This document shows, piece by piece, positions 2,444 to 21,231 of a stretch of 64,000 nt of DNA. The stretch's first letter is position 1; every line of letters begins with the position of its first letter. Below the pieces are notes generated by a model, which was given only the letters and a program-made list of their open reading frames with translations, did not search any database and was not told the origin of the DNA. This stretch comes from Lachnospiraceae bacterium (lineage in GTDB: Bacteria > Bacillota > Clostridia > Lachnospirales > Lachnospiraceae). The position numbers were made by a program, and so were the translations under genes. The stretch is taken from NCBI GenBank assembly GCA_017387565.1, contig JAFOEY010000034.1, positions 16,607 through 80,606 of the forward strand, read 5' to 3'.

Positions 2444-3961
2444 TTATTTTAATTTGTACATTTTTCCTTTTGTTTTACCATTATCAACAAGCTTCTCAAG
2501 TCCAACCAATTCCTTTAATAATTCTTTTGTTCTGGTATCCTTGAGTCCTAGATTCTCTGCAATTTCCGCAGTCTTATGCCATTCACCATCATCCATCAAC
2601 TTTAGAATTTTGTCATACTGCTCCATCTTTTTCTTAGACAATTTATTCGTCGCTTTTTCATAACCATCCGATGCTGAAACTTCATCACTATTTTCTAAAA
2701 ACGCTGGATGAATCGGAATCCTTATTCTCATAGCTCGTCTATCTTCATCGGTAAAGAATTCCGCTCTAGGGGAACCATTCTTTTCAAGTTCTTCCTGTAT
2801 AGTTGGAATACCGGAAGAATGACCTTCTGATAAATCAAGCTCTTTTAAAAATTCACCAAGTCTCCTATTGCGATAATATCTTGAGACAAATCTTTTTCCT
2901 TCTGCTATCGTTTTTTCAGAAATCGACCTGTCTATACCAGGGAAATTCATAATATTTATACAATCCGGCTCTATCTCAATCGTAACCGGCTCATACGACA
3001 TATAATCTCTGTGATAAAATGCATTTACCACAGCCTCCTCGATTGCCTGATAAGGATAGTTAAAGATTCTCAAAGCTTCCATCTGATTCGGAACTTTAAT
3101 AACCTTTTCACGTATAAATAGATTACGAAAACGTTCCATTGTTGCCTGAATCATTTGTGGGACTGAACCTGTAATATTGGGGAAATCCTCGCTGATACTT
3201 GGATTCTCTATACTTCCCTTTGGAAATGATGTCATTTGAACATAAGTATATCCAAAAAATTTCTCCAGATGCTCACAAAACATCATAAGAGCCACATTCT
3301 GAATATATCTTAGTTCTGGTGGTCCTACTAAAAGCTGCATATCCTTGAGAATTTCCTCAACGCCACGCTCTCTTACCTGTTTTGCAAGTTTACTACCAGT
3401 CTTACGCAGGTGATCTTCCAACAACACAGGTGAAATATCTTCGAATGTTGCCTTGTGATTTGCCCTGCAATCAAATGGTGTTTTGTCGGACATATTAATC
3501 AATTCACGTTCCTGCTCTGGATTTGCCTTAACAGAACTTGTCAGATATCGAATATAATAATTATATTTTTTGTCTTTCTTACTAGTCACATACTCCGGTG
3601 ATTTATATGGGCGCTGTTGTCCCGTCCTGGCAACAATGACATAAATCCATTTTCCATCTACATCTACTGGTATACCTTGTGGAAAATATGGTGGGGATAT
3701 TGTATTATTATATCCTACCATCTCCTTCTGAATTGTATCCAGCATATACTCTGGCAATCCTTTTACCGGACGCTTTGCAATGCCATTTTCTTCTTCAACA
3801 CCTACAACAATATAGCCACCACCATCGTTGTTGTAATCATTTGCAAATGCACAGACACTATGATAGATATCATCAGGATTCCATCCCGCCTTAAACTCTA
3901 TGCGGTCTGATTCTATTTTCTTTTTGTTTAATAAATCTTCAACGCTTATTTCAAGTTCCAT
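2444..3961 (-). CDS. AlbA_2/Schlafen-like domain + HATPase_c_4 (RecG C-terminal-like) + winged-helix protein
   Basis: N-terminal ESDRIEFKA..SVCAFAN...GGYIVVGV, central EAVVNAFYHRDY and YRNRRLGEFLKELDLSEGHSSGIP, C-terminal wHTH (TAEIAENLGLKDTRTKELLKELV). Start placed at ATG 3961 after GAGAGGA. Confidence 0.85.
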   Translation of the reverse strand: MELEISVEDLLNKKKIESDRIEFKAGWNPDDIYHSVCAFANDYNNDGGGYIVVGVEEENGIAKRPVKGLPEYMLDTIQKEMVGYNNTISPPYFPQGIPVDVDGKWIYVIVARTGQQRPYKSPEYVTSKKDKKYNYYIRYLTSSVKANPEQERELINMSDKTPFDCRANHKATFEDISPVLLEDHLRKTGSKLAKQVRERGVEEILKDMQLLVGPPELRYIQNVALMMFCEHLEKFFGYTYVQMTSFPKGSIENPSISEDFPNITGSVPQMIQATMERFRNLFIREKVIKVPNQMEALRIFNYPYQAIEEAVVNAFYHRDYMSYEPVTIEIEPDCINIMNFPGIDRSISEKTIAEGKRFVSRYYRNRRLGEFLKELDLSEGHSSGIPTIQEELEKNGSPRAEFFTDEDRRAMRIRIPIHPAFLENSDEVSASDGYEKATNKLSKKKMEQYDKILKLMDDGEWHKTAEIAENLGLKDTRTKELLKELVGLEKLVDNGKTKGKMYKLK

Positions 3962-15513: not shown

Positions 15514-16179
15514 TTAGTTTCGGATACGTTTATCCGTTTTATTTGCAATAAACATGCCAAGCTCCTGGAATACCTGTACAATAATGACCAGTACAAATAC
15601 CGTTGCCCACATGATATTGGCCTGATAGCGATAATAACCGTAATTGATAGCGATTGCTCCAAGTCCGCCGCCACCGGTAAATCCTGCCATTGCGGAATAG
15701 CCAAGCAGAGTTGCAAATGCTATGGTACATCCGACAAACAAGGATGGTTTTGCCTCCGGCAGTAACACTTTCCAGATGATCTGGAAGTTGCTTGATCCCA
15801 TGGCCTGTGCCGCTTCAATTACGCCCTGATCCACCTCCTTTAAAGATGATTCCACCATTCGTGCAATAAACGGAATGGCTGCTACAATCAGCGGAACTAC
15901 CGTTGCATTTGTTCCGATCGTCGTTCCTGCCACAAGCCTTGTAAAAGGCAGAATGGCAATTAACAAAATAATAAAGGGTATGGACCGGGTTAAATTCACA
16001 ATCACGCCCAATACCGTATTGACGATCCGACATCGGCAAATTCCGTTTTTATCTGTTATAAAAAGCAGTACTCCCAAAGGAATTCCCGCCAGATACGAAC
16101 AGGCTGTAGAAAGGATTACCATATATAAGGTTTCCAATGCACCTTTGTAAAGCAGTGTAACTAACTGATTAAATTCCAT
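15514..16179 (-). CDS. metI: Methionine ABC transporter permease
   Basis: RSIPFIIL, EAAQAMG EAA loop, SAMAGFTGGGGLG, YGYYRY. Confidence 0.92.
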   Translation of the reverse strand: MEFNQLVTLLYKGALETLYMVILSTACSYLAGIPLGVLLFITDKNGICRCRIVNTVLGVIVNLTRSIPFIILLIAILPFTRLVAGTTIGTNATVVPLIVAAIPFIARMVESSLKEVDQGVIEAAQAMGSSNFQIIWKVLLPEAKPSLFVGCTIAFATLLGYSAMAGFTGGGGLGAIAINYGYYRYQANIMWATVFVLVIIVQVFQELGMFIANKTDKRIRN

Positions 16180-17170
16180 CCACATCTTCCTCCTCGTAAT
16201 GAACTCCTATCGAATCCAGATATTCTTTTGCTAAAGCAATTACCGCTTCATCCTGCGGAAATTCCAAAAGCATCTGGCCATATGCTTTTCCTCCGATATC
16301 TTCTGTTCCGGCTCCCAAAATATTGACCGGGATATGACATTTTAAAACCAGATTGGCCACAACCGGTTCGGAAGATGCCTGCCCACCAAAAACAAGTCGG
16401 AATACCTTTCCCTGATAGGTCCGGTTGTCAAATTTTTGTTTGGGATAAATCATTTCCTGGGCTACTTTAGTTTTGGGTGATAAAAATACCTCCTGTACAC
16501 TTCCCTGCTCAACGATTTCTCCCTCATTTAACACAGCCACATGGGTACATATTTTTTCCACCACACGCATTTCATGCGTAATGACGATAATTGTAACGCC
16601 CAGCTTTTCATTGATTTCTTTTAAAAGCTCCAAGATGGAATTGGTCGTATTGGGGTCCAAAGCACTGGTTGCCTCATCACACAAGAGGTATTTCGGCTGT
16701 GTAGCCAATGCCCTTGCAATTGCCACTCTCTGTTTCTGTCCTCCTGATAGCTGTGCAGGATAGTGATACATTCGGTCTTCCAGTCCTACCAGTTTTAAGA
16801 GTTCAATTGCCCGCTCCTTTGCTTCTTTTTTATTTGTGCCTGCAATCTCTAAAGGATAACAGACATTTTTCAAAGCGTTTCTTTGTGACAATAAATTGAA
16901 CTGTTGAAAAACCATTCCGATTTTTCTTCGCTCTTCTCTAAGTGCCGCATTTCCAAGTGTCGTCAGTTCTGTATCATCTATAAAAACTTTTCCTCCTGTT
17001 GGTCGTTCCAACAGGTTCACACATCGTACCAATGTTGATTTTCCGGCACCGGAAGAACCAATGATACCAAAAATACTTCCATCTTCGATGGTAAGATTTA
17101 TGTTTTTTACGGCTTCGGTCTCTTTATTCTTCTGAACAAAAGTTTTGCTTACCTGTTCCAGTCGTATCAT
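16169..17170 (-). CDS. metN: Methionine ABC transporter ATPase with C-terminal NIL domain
   Basis: GSSGAGKST, LSGGQKQR, DEATSALDP, ITHEM, C-terminal NIL-like VNILGAG. Confidence 0.93.
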   Translation of the reverse strand: MIRLEQVSKTFVQKNKETEAVKNINLTIEDGSIFGIIGSSGAGKSTLVRCVNLLERPTGGKVFIDDTELTTLGNAALREERRKIGMVFQQFNLLSQRNALKNVCYPLEIAGTNKKEAKERAIELLKLVGLEDRMYHYPAQLSGGQKQRVAIARALATQPKYLLCDEATSALDPNTTNSILELLKEINEKLGVTIIVITHEMRVVEKICTHVAVLNEGEIVEQGSVQEVFLSPKTKVAQEMIYPKQKFDNRTYQGKVFRLVFGGQASSEPVVANLVLKCHIPVNILGAGTEDIGGKAYGQMLLEFPQDEAVIALAKEYLDSIGVHYEEEDVDGI

Positions 17171-17211
17171 GTCTTTTCCTTTCTTTGATTTTCTTTATAC
17201 TGTTATTCTTA

Positions 17212-17290
17212 TTCTGAAATCGAGTTTTCTCAATTCCTGTTTTTCTGAAATCAATTTTTCACAATTCCTATATTTTGAAATCAGACTTTT
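17212..17290. repeat. Degenerate ~31-bp tandem repeat (about 2.5 copies) in the metN 5' region
   Basis: TTCTGAAATC at 17212 and 17243, TTTGAAATC at 17274. Confidence 0.6.
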
Positions 17291-17303
17291 TAATGCCTGT
17301 TAT

Positions 17304-17338
17304 GAAAAAAACGCAGGCGCACCATTGCACCTGCGTTT
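17304..17338 (-). terminator. Attenuator terminator upstream of metN
   Basis: AAACGCAGGTGCA-ATGG-TGCGCCTGCGTTT (13-bp stem) plus U-tract. Confidence 0.85.
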
Positions 17339-17359
17339 GCTAAAAATCTTCATTGTATT

Positions 17360-17461
17360 TTATCGCTTTCGGGGTGCAGGAAAATAAACCATATCATGTC
17401 TTGTCATCATACAGCAGCGTGTTTGCATATTCATCATCATAGTATTTACTGTTTTTTGCAT
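17360..17461 (-). CDS. Met/Cys-rich leader peptide MQKTVNTMMMNMQTRCCMMTRHDMVYFPAPRKR
   Basis: 33 codons with 8 Met and 2 Cys, strong GAAAGGAGAG RBS, directly upstream of a terminator and metNIQ. Not in the ORF track. Confidence 0.8.
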   Translation of the reverse strand: MQKTVNTMMMNMQTRCCMMTRHDMVYFPAPRKR

Positions 17462-17563
17462 AATATCGTTCTCTCCTTTCCTCTTTTGCTTTTTGTTCCT
17501 TTCGATGTGTTTAGTATAGCATCATGCAAAGAAATGTGTTAATACGCAAAATTTATAATTAGT

Positions 17564-17580
17564 CATAGGGAAATACTATA
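17564..17580. promoter_or_regulatory. LysR-type (MetR/MtaR-like) operator
   Basis: CATAG-GGAAATA-CTATA, upstream of a TGnTATACT -10 (17513-17521) of the met leader. Confidence 0.45.
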
Positions 17581-17734
17581 ACAAGCAATCAATTTCTTAA
17601 TCAGCAAAAAAATCTAGAGCTGGCACTCTAGACTTCTTTCGACGCACTTGGAATCAAACTAACTTTTCTTAGCTAAGTTCATATTACAACCTTTTTTCCA
17701 AAATACAACAATAATCATATTCAATTTTGTTAAT

Positions 17735-17768
17735 CGAACTTGTGTTCTGTTTTAGGTTATGTTATAAT
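17735..17768 (+). promoter_or_regulatory. SigA promoter of the small toxin gene overlapped by a LexA (Cheo) box
   Basis: CGAAC-TTGT-GTTCT (17735-17748) overlaps -35 TTGTGT (17740-17745), then 17 nt, then TGnTATAAT (17763-17768). Confidence 0.7.
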
Positions 17769-17848
17769 GAATTTAGTAGCAATTTGCTACGGGCAATCGT
17801 GTTACAGGGTGGTTGACCTCTATTCTACATAGAATGGAGGTGATGCTG

Positions 17849-17935
17849 ATGAAGAAATTTGACTTTAAAGACTTAATGTCTTTCGGAATGTTTCTCTTAG
17901 CATTGCTGACATTCATTTATTTGATTTGTCAGTAA
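17849..17935 (+). CDS. Type I toxin-like small membrane peptide MKKFDFKDLMSFGMFLLALLTFIYLICQ (holin-like toxin type)
   Basis: GGAGGTG RBS, 28 aa with a basic N-terminus and single TM. 5' UTR (17791-17820) is complementary to the 3' region (18000-18026). Not in the ORF track. Confidence 0.8.
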   Translation: MKKFDFKDLMSFGMFLLALLTFIYLICQ

Positions 17936-18032
17936 TATAAAACAAAACCTTCCCTGTACTTTGGCTAGTGCGAGAAGGTTTTGCATTAAATCTTTTATAA
18001 GGCCAACCACTCTGTGGCGATTGCCTTTTCTA
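17935..18032 (-). ncRNA. Putative antisense antitoxin RNA (~100 nt)
   Basis: Convergent promoter TTGTAA-16-TGcTATAAT (18065-18038). Hairpin AAAACCTTC...GAAGGTTTT (17943-17983) followed by a U-rich tract on the minus strand. Confidence 0.65.
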
Positions 18033-18142
18033 TTTACATTATAGCAAAAAACAGAAATATTACAACTAGTTTCTCAAATTCGTTTGTTCATTTTTACTAA
18101 AAGCGAAGTATCATACTCTGTGATCCGAAAAATCAATTTATC

Positions 18143-18556
18143 TCACATCAACCAATCCATATAATATAGCTCTATTCCACTATTCATAAATTCAAACAAA
18201 GTGCAGGCCATCCTTCCTATTATACTAACACCCGCTAAATTCAATAGAACAGCTATAATAACCCCCAATATTACACATGCCCAGATAATAAAAATTTGAC
18301 CTTTACATTGTTTACTATTGATTATCTTGATTGTAAGGTAAATGGTTGGAACAAGAATAAATGCTATGATTACTATAGTCACTCCTATGCTGACAATATA
18401 TCCAATACCGGTTAGATATCGTCTATACCCAGCCCACCCATAAGACACATTTATCTTATAATTAACATCGAATCCTATTCTAAAGGCAGTCAATATTTCA
18501 ACATATAATACCAATAAAAAATACTTCAATCCTATATTCTTTTGCTTTGCTTTCAT
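18143..18556 (-). CDS. Hypothetical membrane protein (AT-rich)
   Basis: 137 aa with 3-4 hydrophobic segments. Start overlaps the upstream stop (ATGA). Confidence 0.6.
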   Translation of the reverse strand: MKAKQKNIGLKYFLLVLYVEILTAFRIGFDVNYKINVSYGWAGYRRYLTGIGYIVSIGVTIVIIAFILVPTIYLTIKIINSKQCKGQIFIIWACVILGVIIAVLLNLAGVSIIGRMACTLFEFMNSGIELYYMDWLM

Positions 18557-19197
18557 TCAATAATATGCTCCTCACAAATCACAAAAGCATTTGTATCGTA
18601 ATCATACTTATAACTACACTCCACATGTGTATTCGTATCTCTTCTATAACTTCCAATTATCAAATTTTTATCTTTATCAATCTGATAATTCGGTATCTGT
18701 TCGAAAGATGCGTTATAAGCAAATACTCCACCATAATTTAAATACACACAATGAACCAAAGCTCCCTGAGCACCTGAATGACCAAGGAATATGACTAAAT
18801 CATCAAGTCCATCAAAATTTACATCTTCCAGCTTTGCTTCAAAATCACAAGCGTCATATACATATCTACCAGCGCCAATTTCGTCACTTGATGGATAAGT
18901 TACTACAATTGCTCCTATTTCATCATCTACATAAAAGAAATAATCTCTTTTGTGCTCATACTCTCCCTTTGGAGTATCAATGTACTGTATTCTAACTCTA
19001 TAGCAACGATTCTCTTCAACCCATTCCATAGATTCTATTTTTTCATTATCATCAACCAATTCTACTATTTCTTCTACTCTTTTATCTACATCTACGTTAC
19101 CTGATGCACAAACAAAATCAGCATTTTCTTTCGTTCCACATCCGGCAATAAAAACTATACAAATGACAAATATTGCATACAATATCTTTTTCTTCAT
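18553..19197 (-). CDS. Hypothetical lipoprotein with an EDVNFDGLDDL beta-propeller-like motif
   Basis: Lipobox IAGC and a DxNFDGxxD motif. Confidence 0.7.
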   Translation of the reverse strand: MKKKILYAIFVICIVFIAGCGTKENADFVCASGNVDVDKRVEEIVELVDDNEKIESMEWVEENRCYRVRIQYIDTPKGEYEHKRDYFFYVDDEIGAIVVTYPSSDEIGAGRYVYDACDFEAKLEDVNFDGLDDLVIFLGHSGAQGALVHCVYLNYGGVFAYNASFEQIPNYQIDKDKNLIIGSYRRDTNTHVECSYKYDYDTNAFVICEEHIIE

Positions 19198-19305
19198 AAT
19201 GGTTTTCCTTTTTATGATATATTTCTAATCGTAAAATCCCGATTTATTTCTTTAAGCGAGTTCCTTTCCTCTTTACTCAATGGATTCTTATGATAAAATC
19301 CCAAA

Positions 19306-19788
19306 TCATCCATTAACAATTTTCTTATAATCTTCATCAGATAATACTCCGACTATATTTTCAAGACTATCATATGAAATTTCTAGTTTTTTAAGTAAAT
19401 CTTCTATAATGCTTTCACTATCAAATTTAGCTTTTTTACTTCTTTTGCATTTATCATCAATAACTCTTAACGATTGAATAATATTATCGACTACCATAAG
19501 ATATTGCGTATCATAGTCTGCATTAATAAAATCATTATAAGGAATAGGCAAACGAACATCTGCATACTGCTTTTTATAATTTATGTATTTTCTCGGTTTA
19601 CCCCAACCATCAATAAGATGCTTGTTCGGGTGACAATTTACTACTATCGCTATGCTTTCAATATTATCCGCATATTGTAAAATACTATAATTTTTCTCAT
19701 CTATTCTTTGGCTTATATCTTGAAGAATAATGTGAACATTATTTGCTTCTCGCCAAATCTCACAACTAATAAATAAAGGTCTACTCAT
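19306..19788 (-). CDS. Putative polymorphic-toxin immunity protein (Imm44/Imm12-like)
   Basis: LFISCEI...SIAIVVNC...RKYINYKKQYADVRLPIPYNDF pattern recalled from these immunity families. Not HMM-verified. Confidence 0.5.
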   Translation of the reverse strand: MSRPLFISCEIWREANNVHIILQDISQRIDEKNYSILQYADNIESIAIVVNCHPNKHLIDGWGKPRKYINYKKQYADVRLPIPYNDFINADYDTQYLMVVDNIIQSLRVIDDKCKRSKKAKFDSESIIEDLLKKLEISYDSLENIVGVLSDEDYKKIVNG

Positions 19789-19901
19789 ATTATTTTTTCA
19801 TCTCCACCTTAGCTCATAAAATATGAACCTACCGGCTCCATCTTAAAAATTACTATTTAAAATGCAAGCCCAGACATTACTACTAAACTAACTAATACAA
19901 T

Positions 19902-20642
19902 TTACGGAAAAATACTTCCATTCCCCATCATCACCCGAATGATACCAATCACAAATAAATGAGCCGGATAATACAGATAGAAAAACCACTTCATTCCCTT
20001 CCACTTTCCTCTTTCGCCATTATACTGTTTTAAGATGAACAACGATAGCAGGGTAAACATTTGAATGATTCCATACACTTTATCCATAAAAATAAAATAC
20101 ACAATGGCATAAAAAGCTGTCCATATGAACATTGTAAAAGCCTGCTTTTTGAAATCGCCGCGATGCAAATACAAATATACCGGGCAAATAGCTGCAATTG
20201 TCGACCAGTCCGCAGGAAATGTAATAAAACAAATCAAAATGGTAAGTACAATTTTAAGCCATTGCGGCAAACGATCCGTTGTAAATATAACCATCAAAAC
20301 GACTGCCCATGCAAGTGGCCACATGACACTTGTCATATTGAAAAAGCCATTCGGGACAAAAGGAATTCCTCCTGCAAAGTTATACGCAAAGTGAGATATG
20401 ATTGCAAAGACAAATAGTCTAAAAATATACTTTTTTACACTTCGCGTATAATGAAATCCTTCTGCAATAAAAAACCACATAATCGGAGCAGTTAATCTTC
20501 CTATCACATGCAATCCCATGACCCACCATATCTTTTGACAACCGGGAAAGAAAAGCCATGTTAAATGATCAATTGTCATTGCAATAATAGCAATCAATTT
20601 AATTTGATTGCTATTTAATCCATTGTTCTTTAATGTATTCAC
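19902..20642 (-). CDS. TraX family membrane protein
   Basis: LNSNQIKLIAIIAMTIDH...IGRLTAPIMWFFIAEGF.YTRS...YNGERG...WFFYLYYPAHL. GTG start at 20642 after GAGGAGG. Confidence 0.85.
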   Translation of the reverse strand: MNTLKNNGLNSNQIKLIAIIAMTIDHLTWLFFPGCQKIWWVMGLHVIGRLTAPIMWFFIAEGFHYTRSVKKYIFRLFVFAIISHFAYNFAGGIPFVPNGFFNMTSVMWPLAWAVVLMVIFTTDRLPQWLKIVLTILICFITFPADWSTIAAICPVYLYLHRGDFKKQAFTMFIWTAFYAIVYFIFMDKVYGIIQMFTLLSLFILKQYNGERGKWKGMKWFFYLYYPAHLFVIGIIRVMMGNGSIFP

Positions 20643-20670
20643 TTCAGTTACCTCCTCATATTCGCATCCT

Positions 20671-21231
20671 TTACATCTGAAATACCAGTCCGACCACTGC
20701 TCCGGCAACCATCCAGAAAAAGGGATGAATCTTGTTCAGCTTCTTCAGATTCATGGCAATGAAAAACAATGCACATAGAATCAGAGAAAAGACCGGAAAC
20801 TGAAAACTGCCATCCGATGCCGTAAACAAAGCAGTCTCAAAGATACCGCATACCGCCGTTGCAATAAGGCCTGTCACAACCGGCCGGATCATGGCAAAGG
20901 ACGATTTCACATACGGATTTTCATTAAATTTATCCAAGATTTTTGCAATGATGACAATCACAATCAGACTGGGTAAGACCAGAGAAAGCGTTGCAGCGAT
21001 ACCACCGGCTAACCCTGCTGCATGGAATCCTGCATAGGTTGCCATATTGATACCAATCGGTCCCGGTGTGCTTTCGCTGATAGCAAGCATATTTACCACG
21101 TCGGATTTGGCATACCAGTCATGTCTGGACGGAATATCCATCAAAAAAGGAATTGTTGCCGGACCACCACCGACTGCAAATAATCCAATCTGGAAGAATT
21201 CAATAAATAGTTGTAAGAAAACAGAGTTCAT
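20671..21231 (-). CDS. Chromate transporter short-chain subunit (CHR family)
   Basis: FFQIGLFAVGGG, SESTPGPIGINMATYAG. Confidence 0.9.
   Translation of the reverse strand: MNSVFLQLFIEFFQIGLFAVGGGPATIPFLMDIPSRHDWYAKSDVVNMLAISESTPGPIGINMATYAGFHAAGLAGGIAATLSLVLPSLIVIVIIAKILDKFNENPYVKSSFAMIRPVVTGLIATAVCGIFETALFTASDGSFQFPVFSLILCALFFIAMNLKKLNKIHPFFWMVAGAVVGLVFQM

Follow-up and report, generated by a model that had tools for sequence, protein, structure and literature searches.

We analysed a 64,000-nt stretch of a Lachnospiraceae genome (contig JAFOEY010000034.1, hereafter the window) and found a short cassette that encodes a 28-aa hydrophobic peptide and a predicted convergent antisense RNA. This cassette is probably a self-contained type I toxin-antitoxin system of the TxpA/BsrG kind under SOS (LexA) control, whose antitoxin overlaps the 3′ end of the toxin message as RatA and SR4 do. 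In silico, the cassette is real, widespread and well supported. Homology among 79 genomic loci was confined to the interval from 17734 to a right limit at 18046-18066, with 17 alignments starting exactly at 17734, and therefore the unit is a 333-bp promoter-to-promoter cassette (17734-18066), matching the coordinates that the original prediction, made from the sequence alone, had given. No flank synteny was found across the 79 loci, so positional orthology was not usable. With one genome taken per species, at least 554 loci were confirmed, mostly from Lachnospiraceae among the matches listed.

The substitution pattern indicates that the 28-aa open reading frame (ORF) of the toxin is coding and under purifying selection. 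In a set of 76 distinct core sequences, codon positions 1/2/3 varied 154/22/464 times, and codon differences comprised 21,994 synonymous versus 5,340 nonsynonymous changes. Length changes near the N-terminus were whole codons, with indels in multiples of three. A perfect Shine-Dalgarno (SD) sequence, GGAGGTG at 17836-17842, lies 8 nt before the ATG, so that the small hydrophobic peptide with a strong ribosome-binding site proposed earlier at 17849-17935 is indeed present. Homologous proteins were searched with a 40-aa in-frame extension of the ORF as the query, and the peptide core FDFKDLMSFGMFLLALLTFIYLIC[HQ] was common to 74 database proteins, nearly all without names. Many of the homologue gene calls extend in frame upstream, through '..ILHRMEV..', showing that the 5′ untranslated region (UTR) of the toxin is conserved as DNA. 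Another reading would leave the ORF untranslated and see in the locus two structured non-coding RNAs. In its favour, no predicted fold leaves the SD free and conservation of the RNA structure is very strong, but we regard it as extremely improbable, given that third-position variation dominates, that changes are mostly synonymous, that the N-terminal indels keep the frame, that the SD is perfectly placed and that the peptide resembles the Hol_Tox family.

The family placement of the peptide was obtained with the Pfam model Hol_Tox (PF16935). The window peptide matched this model with E = 9e-4 and 19.5 bits, the gathering cutoff being 23.3 bits, and 18 of 19 relatives matched it at E <= 0.01 (best E, 3.8e-6). 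Among close relatives, P0072 (27.1 bits) and P0062 (24.2 bits) scored above the cutoff and P0049 (22.4 bits) below it. BsrG and TxpA scored 34.5 and 31.3 bits on the same model, and therefore Hol_Tox corresponds to the TxpA/BsrG toxin family. By these scores the window peptide is a divergent, borderline member of that family. TxpA-like sequences, a few of them annotated as 'holin-like toxins', have been described in Clostridiales (Fozo et al. 2010, PMC2887945). NCBIfam gave only weak ComI and PepG1 matches to the peptide, and a PDB search gave no meaningful match. At the RNA level, no Rfam model reached its gathering score in 16000-20000 of the window; the BsrG RNA model (RF01412) over the toxin ORF stayed sub-threshold (21.6 vs 55 bits, E = 0.033), as did an L20-leader match. 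The Rfam model RF01492 (Listeria rli28) aligned with 17753-17940 at 24.3 bits (E = 4.4; gathering score 45), best over the -10 and the 5′ hairpin (AUGUUAUAAU..UAGUAGCAA); rli28 might be a related toxin mRNA, an idea to which this score lends no backing.

The predicted toxin mRNA is closed on itself by a long-range helix between its 5′ UTR (element E1) and its 3′ end (element E2). The original prediction that the two ends could pair was confirmed by inverted-repeat arms at 17792-17799/18018-18025 (8/8 matches) and 17804-17819/18000-18015 (14/16, 88%), and by covariation of the helix among homologous transcripts. The plus-strand RNA 17775-18035 folded at -107.3 kcal/mol (z = -10.6) with the 5′-3′ closing helix formed and the SD buried. 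The E1:E2 duplex contributed -36.6 kcal/mol, and the SD hairpin alone -12.7 kcal/mol, with an SD unpaired probability of ~0. When the minimum-free-energy structure of the window was projected onto an alignment (A2) of 72 distinct homologous transcripts, 85.8% of cells were paired, compared with 36-49% when the partners were slid by 1-3 columns; double changes occurred at 31 pairs, and no shuffle reached the observed covariation score. The closing helix (helix 2) was 93.8% paired with four doubly changed pairs, the inner E1:E2 helix (helix 4) was 94% paired, and the SD hairpin was 99.8% and 98.2% paired, with U/C changes on the anti-SD side only. RNAalifold also recovered the closing helix; no more than one pair was broken, and the pair columns included GC47/AU22/GU3, GC47/AU18/GU6 and UA46/CG15/UG11. 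Across homologues, the 5′ hairpin showed compensatory double changes at each of its six pairs, and the stem of the post-stop hairpin carried compensatory changes as well (UA44/AU25; UA31/CG29). The closing helix and the buried SD reappeared in 72/72 homologues folded individually. Mixed states, for example E1 AGCAAUCG against E2 CGGUUGUU, are G-U wobbles valid on the plus strand only, indicating that the helix is a feature of the toxin mRNA and not of the DNA or the antisense RNA. Taken together, the 5′-3′ helix is supported by covariation in the manner of the hok/sok fold-back, as judged from these comparisons.

Several further features of the toxin message were observed. Extra stem-loops of 13-20 nt occur at the internal loop of the closing helix, in E1 (loci L007, L012, L026, L049, L059, L063-L065, L069, L070 and L073) or in E2 (L008, L011, L052 and L079), and leave the helix itself undisturbed, which fits a junction that tolerates insertions. 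The loop of the post-stop hairpin, CCCUGUACUUUGRC, is almost invariant and could nucleate a loop-loop contact. Release of E1 as a means of exposing the SD was rejected, the SD remaining paired in truncated mRNA. An alternative pairing between E1 and the post-stop hairpin (its 5′ arm), also proposed by RNAalifold, could be an antiterminator or a metastable structure and could let transcription continue past the first hairpin. Its energy gain over shuffles was only ~1.6 standard deviations and a subfamily swap test showed no specificity; support for it is weak, and we keep it as speculation.

On the opposite strand, the sequence contains a predicted antisense RNA gene that is convergent over the 3′ end of the toxin gene and complementary to its mRNA. 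Its promoter matches 10 of 12 consensus positions with the TG present, and it is the best promoter-like site in 17100-18700. The hairpin at 17944-17983 is followed on the minus strand by TTTTGTTTT, and the fold of the minus-strand RNA 18031-17925 (z = -4.4) has one hairpin at the 5′ end and a terminator hairpin, after which comes UUUUGUUUU. The promoter is retained in homologues, with at least 9/12 matches in 68 of 75 distinct sequences and the TG in 70 of 75, and its -10 ends 12-15 nt from E2. The convergent extended -10 promoter and terminator proposed earlier for an antisense RNA of ~100 nt over the 3′ UTR are thus borne out, the predicted RNA being ~94 nt long and leaving the ORF uncovered. 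Its complementarity to the toxin 3′ UTR (E2 and the hairpin) is complete and does not include the ORF. Since the 5′ part of the antitoxin (GGCAAUCGCCACAGAGUGGUUGGCC) is a near-copy of E1, pairing of the antitoxin with E2 and pairing of E1 with E2 should be mutually exclusive. No antitoxin complementarity to the toxin translation initiation region was found (mean z = 0.08 vs shuffles), so a trans-acting mode like that of SprA1AS is unlikely and was rejected.

The toxin promoter carries a LexA-type box. The sequence CGAACTTGTGTTCT at 17735-17748 is a GAAC-N4-GTT[CT] (Cheo) box over the promoter -35, and, as originally proposed, its core GAACTTGTGTTC at 17736-17747 covers the -35 hexamer at 17740-17745. 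The accompanying claim of a consensus promoter holds for the TG-extended -10 (TGTTATAAT, 17 nt downstream) but not for the -35, TTGTGT, which matches 3/6 consensus positions; any strength of the promoter should therefore come from the extended -10, and the poor -35 also explains why a promoter scan of 17100-18700 missed it. The window holds no other GAAC-N4-GTTC; composition predicts ~0.8 per 64 kb, so this single box is not significant alone, and its significance comes from conservation in homologues. The perfect box was present in 36 of 83 gene instances, always 27 nt before TATAAT irrespective of the distance to the ORF. There are two subfamilies: subfamily A, which includes the window (E1 GGCAATCG, with the 5′ hairpin), has the perfect box in 36/49 promoters and a GTTT variant in 2 more; subfamily B (E1 AACAACCG, without the 5′ hairpin and with other promoters) has it in 0/31. 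When 27 distinct promoters were aligned on the box, each position of TCGAACTTGTGTTC carried ~2 bits of information; almost none was left in the 14-nt spacer or in the 25 nt upstream of the box, and the signal returned at TGnTATAAT. This conservation is palindromic and reaches 4 nt past the -35 hexamer on both sides, which a bare promoter does not explain, and the left edge of the box (17734) coincides with the left edge of cassette homology. The conservation of the box in homologous loci, which had been proposed as a check on the idea, was thus found in subfamily A, locked in position to the -10 and with unconserved flanks. In 480 kb of related loci there were 41 perfect boxes where ~6 are expected by chance: 36 at toxin promoters, one at a degenerate cassette copy (L003:1909), two upstream of a TIGR03916 gene (L009) and two others.

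The motif also has a counterpart in the literature and at a repair gene. The LexA operator is GAACN4GTTC in B. subtilis and GAACnnnnGTT[CT] in clostridia, the latter validated by surface plasmon resonance for C. difficile lexA, recA and uvrB (PMC4234289), and the box equals this Firmicute LexA site in sequence, as originally noted. In distinct upstream regions of TIGR03916 radical SAM homologues on gut metagenome contigs, at least one GAAC-N4-GTT[CT] was found in 49 of 69, whereas the rest of those loci held one box in 144 kb, an enrichment of roughly 400-fold; the N4 at these boxes is variable (AAAT, GTAG, ATAT, ATTA and others). In these bacteria the half-site motif is therefore a real operator that marks a DNA-repair gene. 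A lexA gene, sought to read its own operator, was present in none of the related loci collected. Two of these loci deserve mention in themselves. In L009:1-3409, from a Lachnospiraceae metagenome-assembled genome (MAG), the toxin 5′ hairpin is immediately preceded by an IS30-family transposase (1264-2607) and the LexA-box promoter is lost; two GAACAAATGTTC boxes with a distance of 48 nt between them stand beyond the IS element, upstream of the TIGR03916 'putative DNA modification/repair radical SAM' gene. In L003:1898-2100, a degenerate second copy of the cassette has kept its own box (CGAACCTGTGTTC at 1909) and 5′ UTR while its ORF is disrupted, and it adjoins a type II pair of RelE/ParE-like and Phd/YefM-like genes.

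An alternative for the box itself is that the conserved 14-mer is a promoter element (the -35 with its context) or the operator of another repressor, so that the cassette is not SOS-regulated. The element does contain the -35, chance alone would give one perfect box in 64 kb, and its N4 (TTGT or TTGC) is nearly invariant, which LexA does not demand. Against this, both half-sites GAAC and GTTC and the flanking C/G are conserved, 4 nt past the -35 on each side, the sequence agrees with CGAAC-N4-GTTCG (PMC4234289) at every position, variants of it read GTTT, an accepted clostridial alternative, and the same half-sites stand at a DNA-repair gene of related genomes with the enrichment given above. 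We therefore consider a non-LexA element quite unlikely.

For the preferred reading of an SOS-controlled TxpA/BsrG-type system, we propose the following course of events. In undamaged cells, LexA would sit on CGAAC-N4-GTTC over the toxin -35 and keep transcription low, as suggested by the motif, its position and its conservation. The toxin mRNA of ~256 nt (~17775-18030) would be made in a locked form, with the SD hairpin and the E1:E2 helix of ~25 bp, and by analogy with hok, aapA, tisB and dinQ this form is expected to be translationally silent and protected at its ends. The ~94-nt antisense RNA would pair with E2, displace E1 and open the closed mRNA into a long duplex, which RNase III may then cut, with degradation of the toxin mRNA as for RatA and SR4. 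Upon DNA damage, LexA self-cleavage would let the toxin mRNA exceed the antitoxin, and the 28-aa single-helix peptide would enter the membrane and slow or stop growth. The comparisons support the original interpretation of the locus as a DNA-damage-inducible membrane toxin, for which toxicity, LexA binding, induction and a part in persistence are presumed.

A number of observations weigh against this reading. The peptide of the window itself falls below the Hol_Tox gathering score (19.5 vs 23.3 bits). The toxin -35 is poor (3/6). The SD hairpin was closed in every modelled form of the mRNA, full-length and truncated after the first hairpin. Both strands have short U-runs behind the hairpin, which makes the predicted transcript ends uncertain. 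The almost invariant N4 of the box could reflect the embedded -35 or the specificity of another protein. Finally, the box is absent from 11/49 subfamily-A promoters, 31/31 subfamily-B promoters and 58/58 viral-contig copies, the last being B-like. Because so many copies have no box, SOS control is not required for the cassette to persist, and, as far as the box reports it, such control is a trait of the subfamily and not of the family.

The distribution of the cassette bears on what it may do. The genera among the matches listed include Roseburia, Agathobacter, Butyrivibrio, Kineothrix, Acetatifactor, Blautia, Enterocloster, Hungatella, Dorea and Faecalicatena, and the closest cassette among them, at 88%, is in a Lachnospiraceae MAG (L002). 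No paralogue was found in the window by tblastn or blastn. Tandem arrays occur elsewhere: Enterocloster aldenensis (L034) has four copies and L025 has three. Unannotated copies, all without the box, are carried by three mobilizable Enterocloster bolteae plasmids, and 58 copies lie on IMG/VR (pro)phage contigs; GenBank phage records held no copy. The lack of flank synteny, the tandem arrays and the plasmid and prophage-type copies are behaviour typical of toxin-antitoxin modules. The variant P0049 (30 aa, MNNKNFDFKDLMQFGMFIISLLTFIYLICQ) is found in 14,383 assembly blocks and, in the contigs examined (L080-L085, gene 3001-3093), occupies a fixed chromosomal site between dxs and the thioredoxin-reductase-like trxB; it shares the closing helix and the antisense promoter, but its promoter is an ordinary one, TTGAAT-17-TGATATACT, and it lacks the LexA box.

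Given the plasmid and IMG/VR copies, the IS30 element and type II toxin-antitoxin pair beside some copies and the Pfam family name 'holin-like toxin', the cassette could be mainly an addiction (post-segregational killing) or phage-related module that stabilises an island, plasmid or prophage, or a holin-like lysis helper, with the LexA box merely coupling it to mobile-element induction. However, the window cassette lies between metNIQ and immunity-type genes with no adjacent phage or plasmid genes, the very abundant P0049 is at a fixed chromosomal site between dxs and trxB, and the mobile copies are exactly those without the box, so we regard this possibility as very unlikely.

SOS division inhibitors of several phyla are small single-pass membrane proteins, and a 28-aa single-helix membrane peptide behind a LexA box might likewise be, within the same architecture, an SOS checkpoint effector that blocks division or growth during repair and was domesticated from a mobile cassette, an analogue of SidA (29 aa, Caulobacter), YneA (B. 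subtilis) and SosA (S. aureus) rather than a toxin or persistence device. The box-bearing copies are indeed chromosomal, and the 58 prophage-contig and the plasmid copies are without the box. We nevertheless judge this account unlikely. The peptide core is almost identical with or without the box and so does not point to a new function; the antisense RNA and the locking of the mRNA, typical for harmful products, are kept; and the relatives BsrG and TxpA act as membrane toxins. A bolder version, which we rate as rather unlikely on the present comparisons, would be that the box-bearing subfamily was domesticated from box-less prophage and plasmid copies into a DNA-damage growth-arrest effector of Lachnospiraceae (a SulA/YneA/SidA-like checkpoint), with an antitoxin that mimics the mRNA 5′ UTR and invades the closing helix, and with the helix and its U-tract possibly serving as the intrinsic terminator of the toxin mRNA.

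Compared with described systems, the toxin family and the antitoxin geometry of the cassette appear to be known ones (TxpA/RatA, BsrG/SR4, EF3263), and its regulatory logic seems to be that of tisB/istR-1 with a Gram-positive operator. Like bsrG/SR4 and txpA/RatA of B. subtilis and EF3263 of E. faecalis, it encodes a single-helix toxin with a ..LM.FG.. motif that falls to the same Pfam model. A convergent antitoxin RNA overlapping only the 3′ end of the toxin mRNA, an SD that is partly or fully sequestered and relatives on prophages and other mobile elements are shared with bsrG/SR4 and txpA/RatA, and an RNA of ~110 nt over the EF3263 3′ UTR (PMC2887945) is comparable. In contrast to bsrG and txpA, which belong to Bacilli, the cassette is hosted by Lachnospiraceae; its peptides are shorter (28-31 vs 38-59 aa) and have no charged C-terminal tail, the window peptide scores under the Pfam cutoff and the locus under that of the Rfam BsrG model, there is a covarying 5′-3′ closing helix whose 3′ strand is the antitoxin target, and the toxin promoter has a LexA-type operator.

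With tisB/istR-1, and also with dinQ/agrB, symE/symR and hokE, the cassette shares a LexA box on the toxin promoter only and an antitoxin on its own sigma-70-type promoter; further likenesses to tisB/istR-1 are a membrane peptide of 28-29 aa and a translationally inert primary transcript, the inertness being presumed for the cassette. It differs from tisB/istR-1 in that no sequence relationship was detected, the only Pfam signal being Hol_Tox, in that the operator is of the Gram-positive type GAAC-N4-GTTC and not CTGT-N8-ACAG, in that the antitoxin is a 3′ cis-antisense RNA whereas istR-1 is divergently encoded and acts at a 5′ standby site, and in that no tisA-like ORF lies upstream. The TisB/IstR-like logic that was originally suggested thus stands as to the LexA-type box and the separately transcribed antitoxin, but not as to the antitoxin geometry, which is TxpA/RatA- and BsrG/SR4-like, or the peptide, which is not a TisB relative. 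In the reviews consulted, LexA-controlled type I systems are named only for E. coli: tisB, symE, dinQ and hokE (PMC5848175, PMC11951105). In the literature we found nothing on this cassette family or on LexA-regulated type I systems in Firmicutes.

The closed mRNA recalls hok/sok (fbi-tac fold-back) and aapA/IsoA of H. pylori, in which the full-length mRNA is likewise closed by 5′-3′ pairing with the SD masked. The antitoxins of those systems bind the 5′ region of the 3′-processed or 5′-processed mRNA, whereas the predicted cassette antitoxin would be directed at the 3′ strand of the closing helix and resembles its 5′ strand; moreover, the cassette has no mok-like leader ORF and no Hok homology. 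As in par (fst RNA I/RNA II, E. faecalis pAD1), convergent genes share a bidirectional terminator hairpin whose conserved loop could nucleate pairing. However, par has direct repeats and its RNA II pairs with the translation initiation region at the RNA I 5′ end, while the cassette repeats are inverted, its antitoxin is not complementary to the initiation region and its toxin is not Fst-like.

SOS-wired type I toxins of E. coli underpin the best-understood route to antibiotic-induced persisters. The cassette suggests that Gram-positive anaerobes arrived at the same logic independently and with different components: a toxin of the TxpA/BsrG type, an antisense RNA at the 3′ end and an operator of the Cheo-box type. 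Its carriers include Roseburia, Agathobacter, Butyrivibrio and other dominant butyrate-producing gut commensals, and we hypothesize that fluoroquinolones, metronidazole, colibactin or bile-acid stress may push these commensals into toxin-mediated arrest. The cassette also defines a well-supported new RNA family of ~260 nt with strong covariation and without an Rfam model, and a peptide family that is unannotated and missing from most gene calls. The box-bearing chromosomal and box-less mobile copies form a natural comparison set for the recruitment of toxin-antitoxin modules into stress regulons. The features of the cassette and of the adjoining methionine-importer leader are collected in Table 1.

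Table 1. Positions in the window of the predicted features of the cassette and of the metNIQ leader
Feature	Sequence	Position	Strand	Remarks
LexA-type (Cheo) operator	TCGAACTTGTGTTCT	17734-17748	+	Core GAAC-N4-GTTC (GAACTTGTGTTC) at 17736-17747, covers the toxin -35
Toxin promoter, TG-extended -10	TGTTATAAT	17760-17768	+	Predicted start ~17775
5′-terminal hairpin	GTAGCAATTTGCTAC	17776-17790	+	15 nt, 6 pairs; subfamily A only
E1, 5′ UTR element	GGGCAATCG...ACAGGGTGGTTGACCT	17791-17819	+	Pairs with E2
Anti-SD/SD hairpin	CCTCTATTCTA-CA-TAGAATGGAGG	17817-17840	+	Sequesters GGAGG (17836-17840)
Toxin ORF	MKKFDFKDLMSFGMFLLALLTFIYLICQ	17849-17935	+	28 aa; charged N-terminus, uncharged 19-residue stretch at residues 9-27
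Post-stop hairpin	Conserved loop CCCTGTACTTTGRC	17944-17983	both	Antisense terminator; possible weak plus-strand terminator
E2, 3′ element	GGCCAACCACTCTGTGGCGATTGCC	18001-18025, then TTTT (to 18029)	+	Predicted toxin mRNA 3′ end
Antitoxin promoter	TTGTAA-16-TGCTATAAT	18065..18038	-	-35 at 18065..18060; extended -10 at 18046..18038
Predicted antitoxin RNA		18031 to ~17938	-	~94 nt; ends inferred from promoter and U-run
met-leader promoter-like site	TTAACA-18-TGnTATACT	17542..17513	-	Followed by a strong ribosome-binding site
met-leader ORF	MQKTVNTMMMNMQTRCCMMTRHDMVYFPAPRKR	17461..17360	-	33 aa; 8 Met and 2 Cys within the first 24 residues
met-leader intrinsic terminator		17338..17309	-	13 bp

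The surroundings of the cassette in the window offered some further observations. To its left, the leader of the metNIQ methionine importer (17296-17545, minus strand), upstream of metN (17170..16169), consists of a promoter-like site, a strong ribosome-binding site, a short ORF and an intrinsic terminator in succession. No S-box or T-box match was found in it by Rfam at E <= 10, and its sequence resembles a trpL/hisL-type attenuator with a leader peptide rich in Met codons. Between this leader and the cassette, outside the conserved unit, lies a hairpin TCTAGAG-N6-CTCTAGA (17606-17632) followed by TTTTTTT on the minus strand; transcription reading through on that strand, be it from the antisense RNA or the gene at 18143-18556, could be halted there. 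To the right, the minus strand of 18143-20708 encodes a 137-aa multi-pass membrane protein without a family match, an XAC2610-related lipoprotein (E = 2.5e-13), an Imm44 immunity protein (E = 6e-12) and a TraX-family protein, and these genes look like orphan immunity genes for polymorphic toxins.

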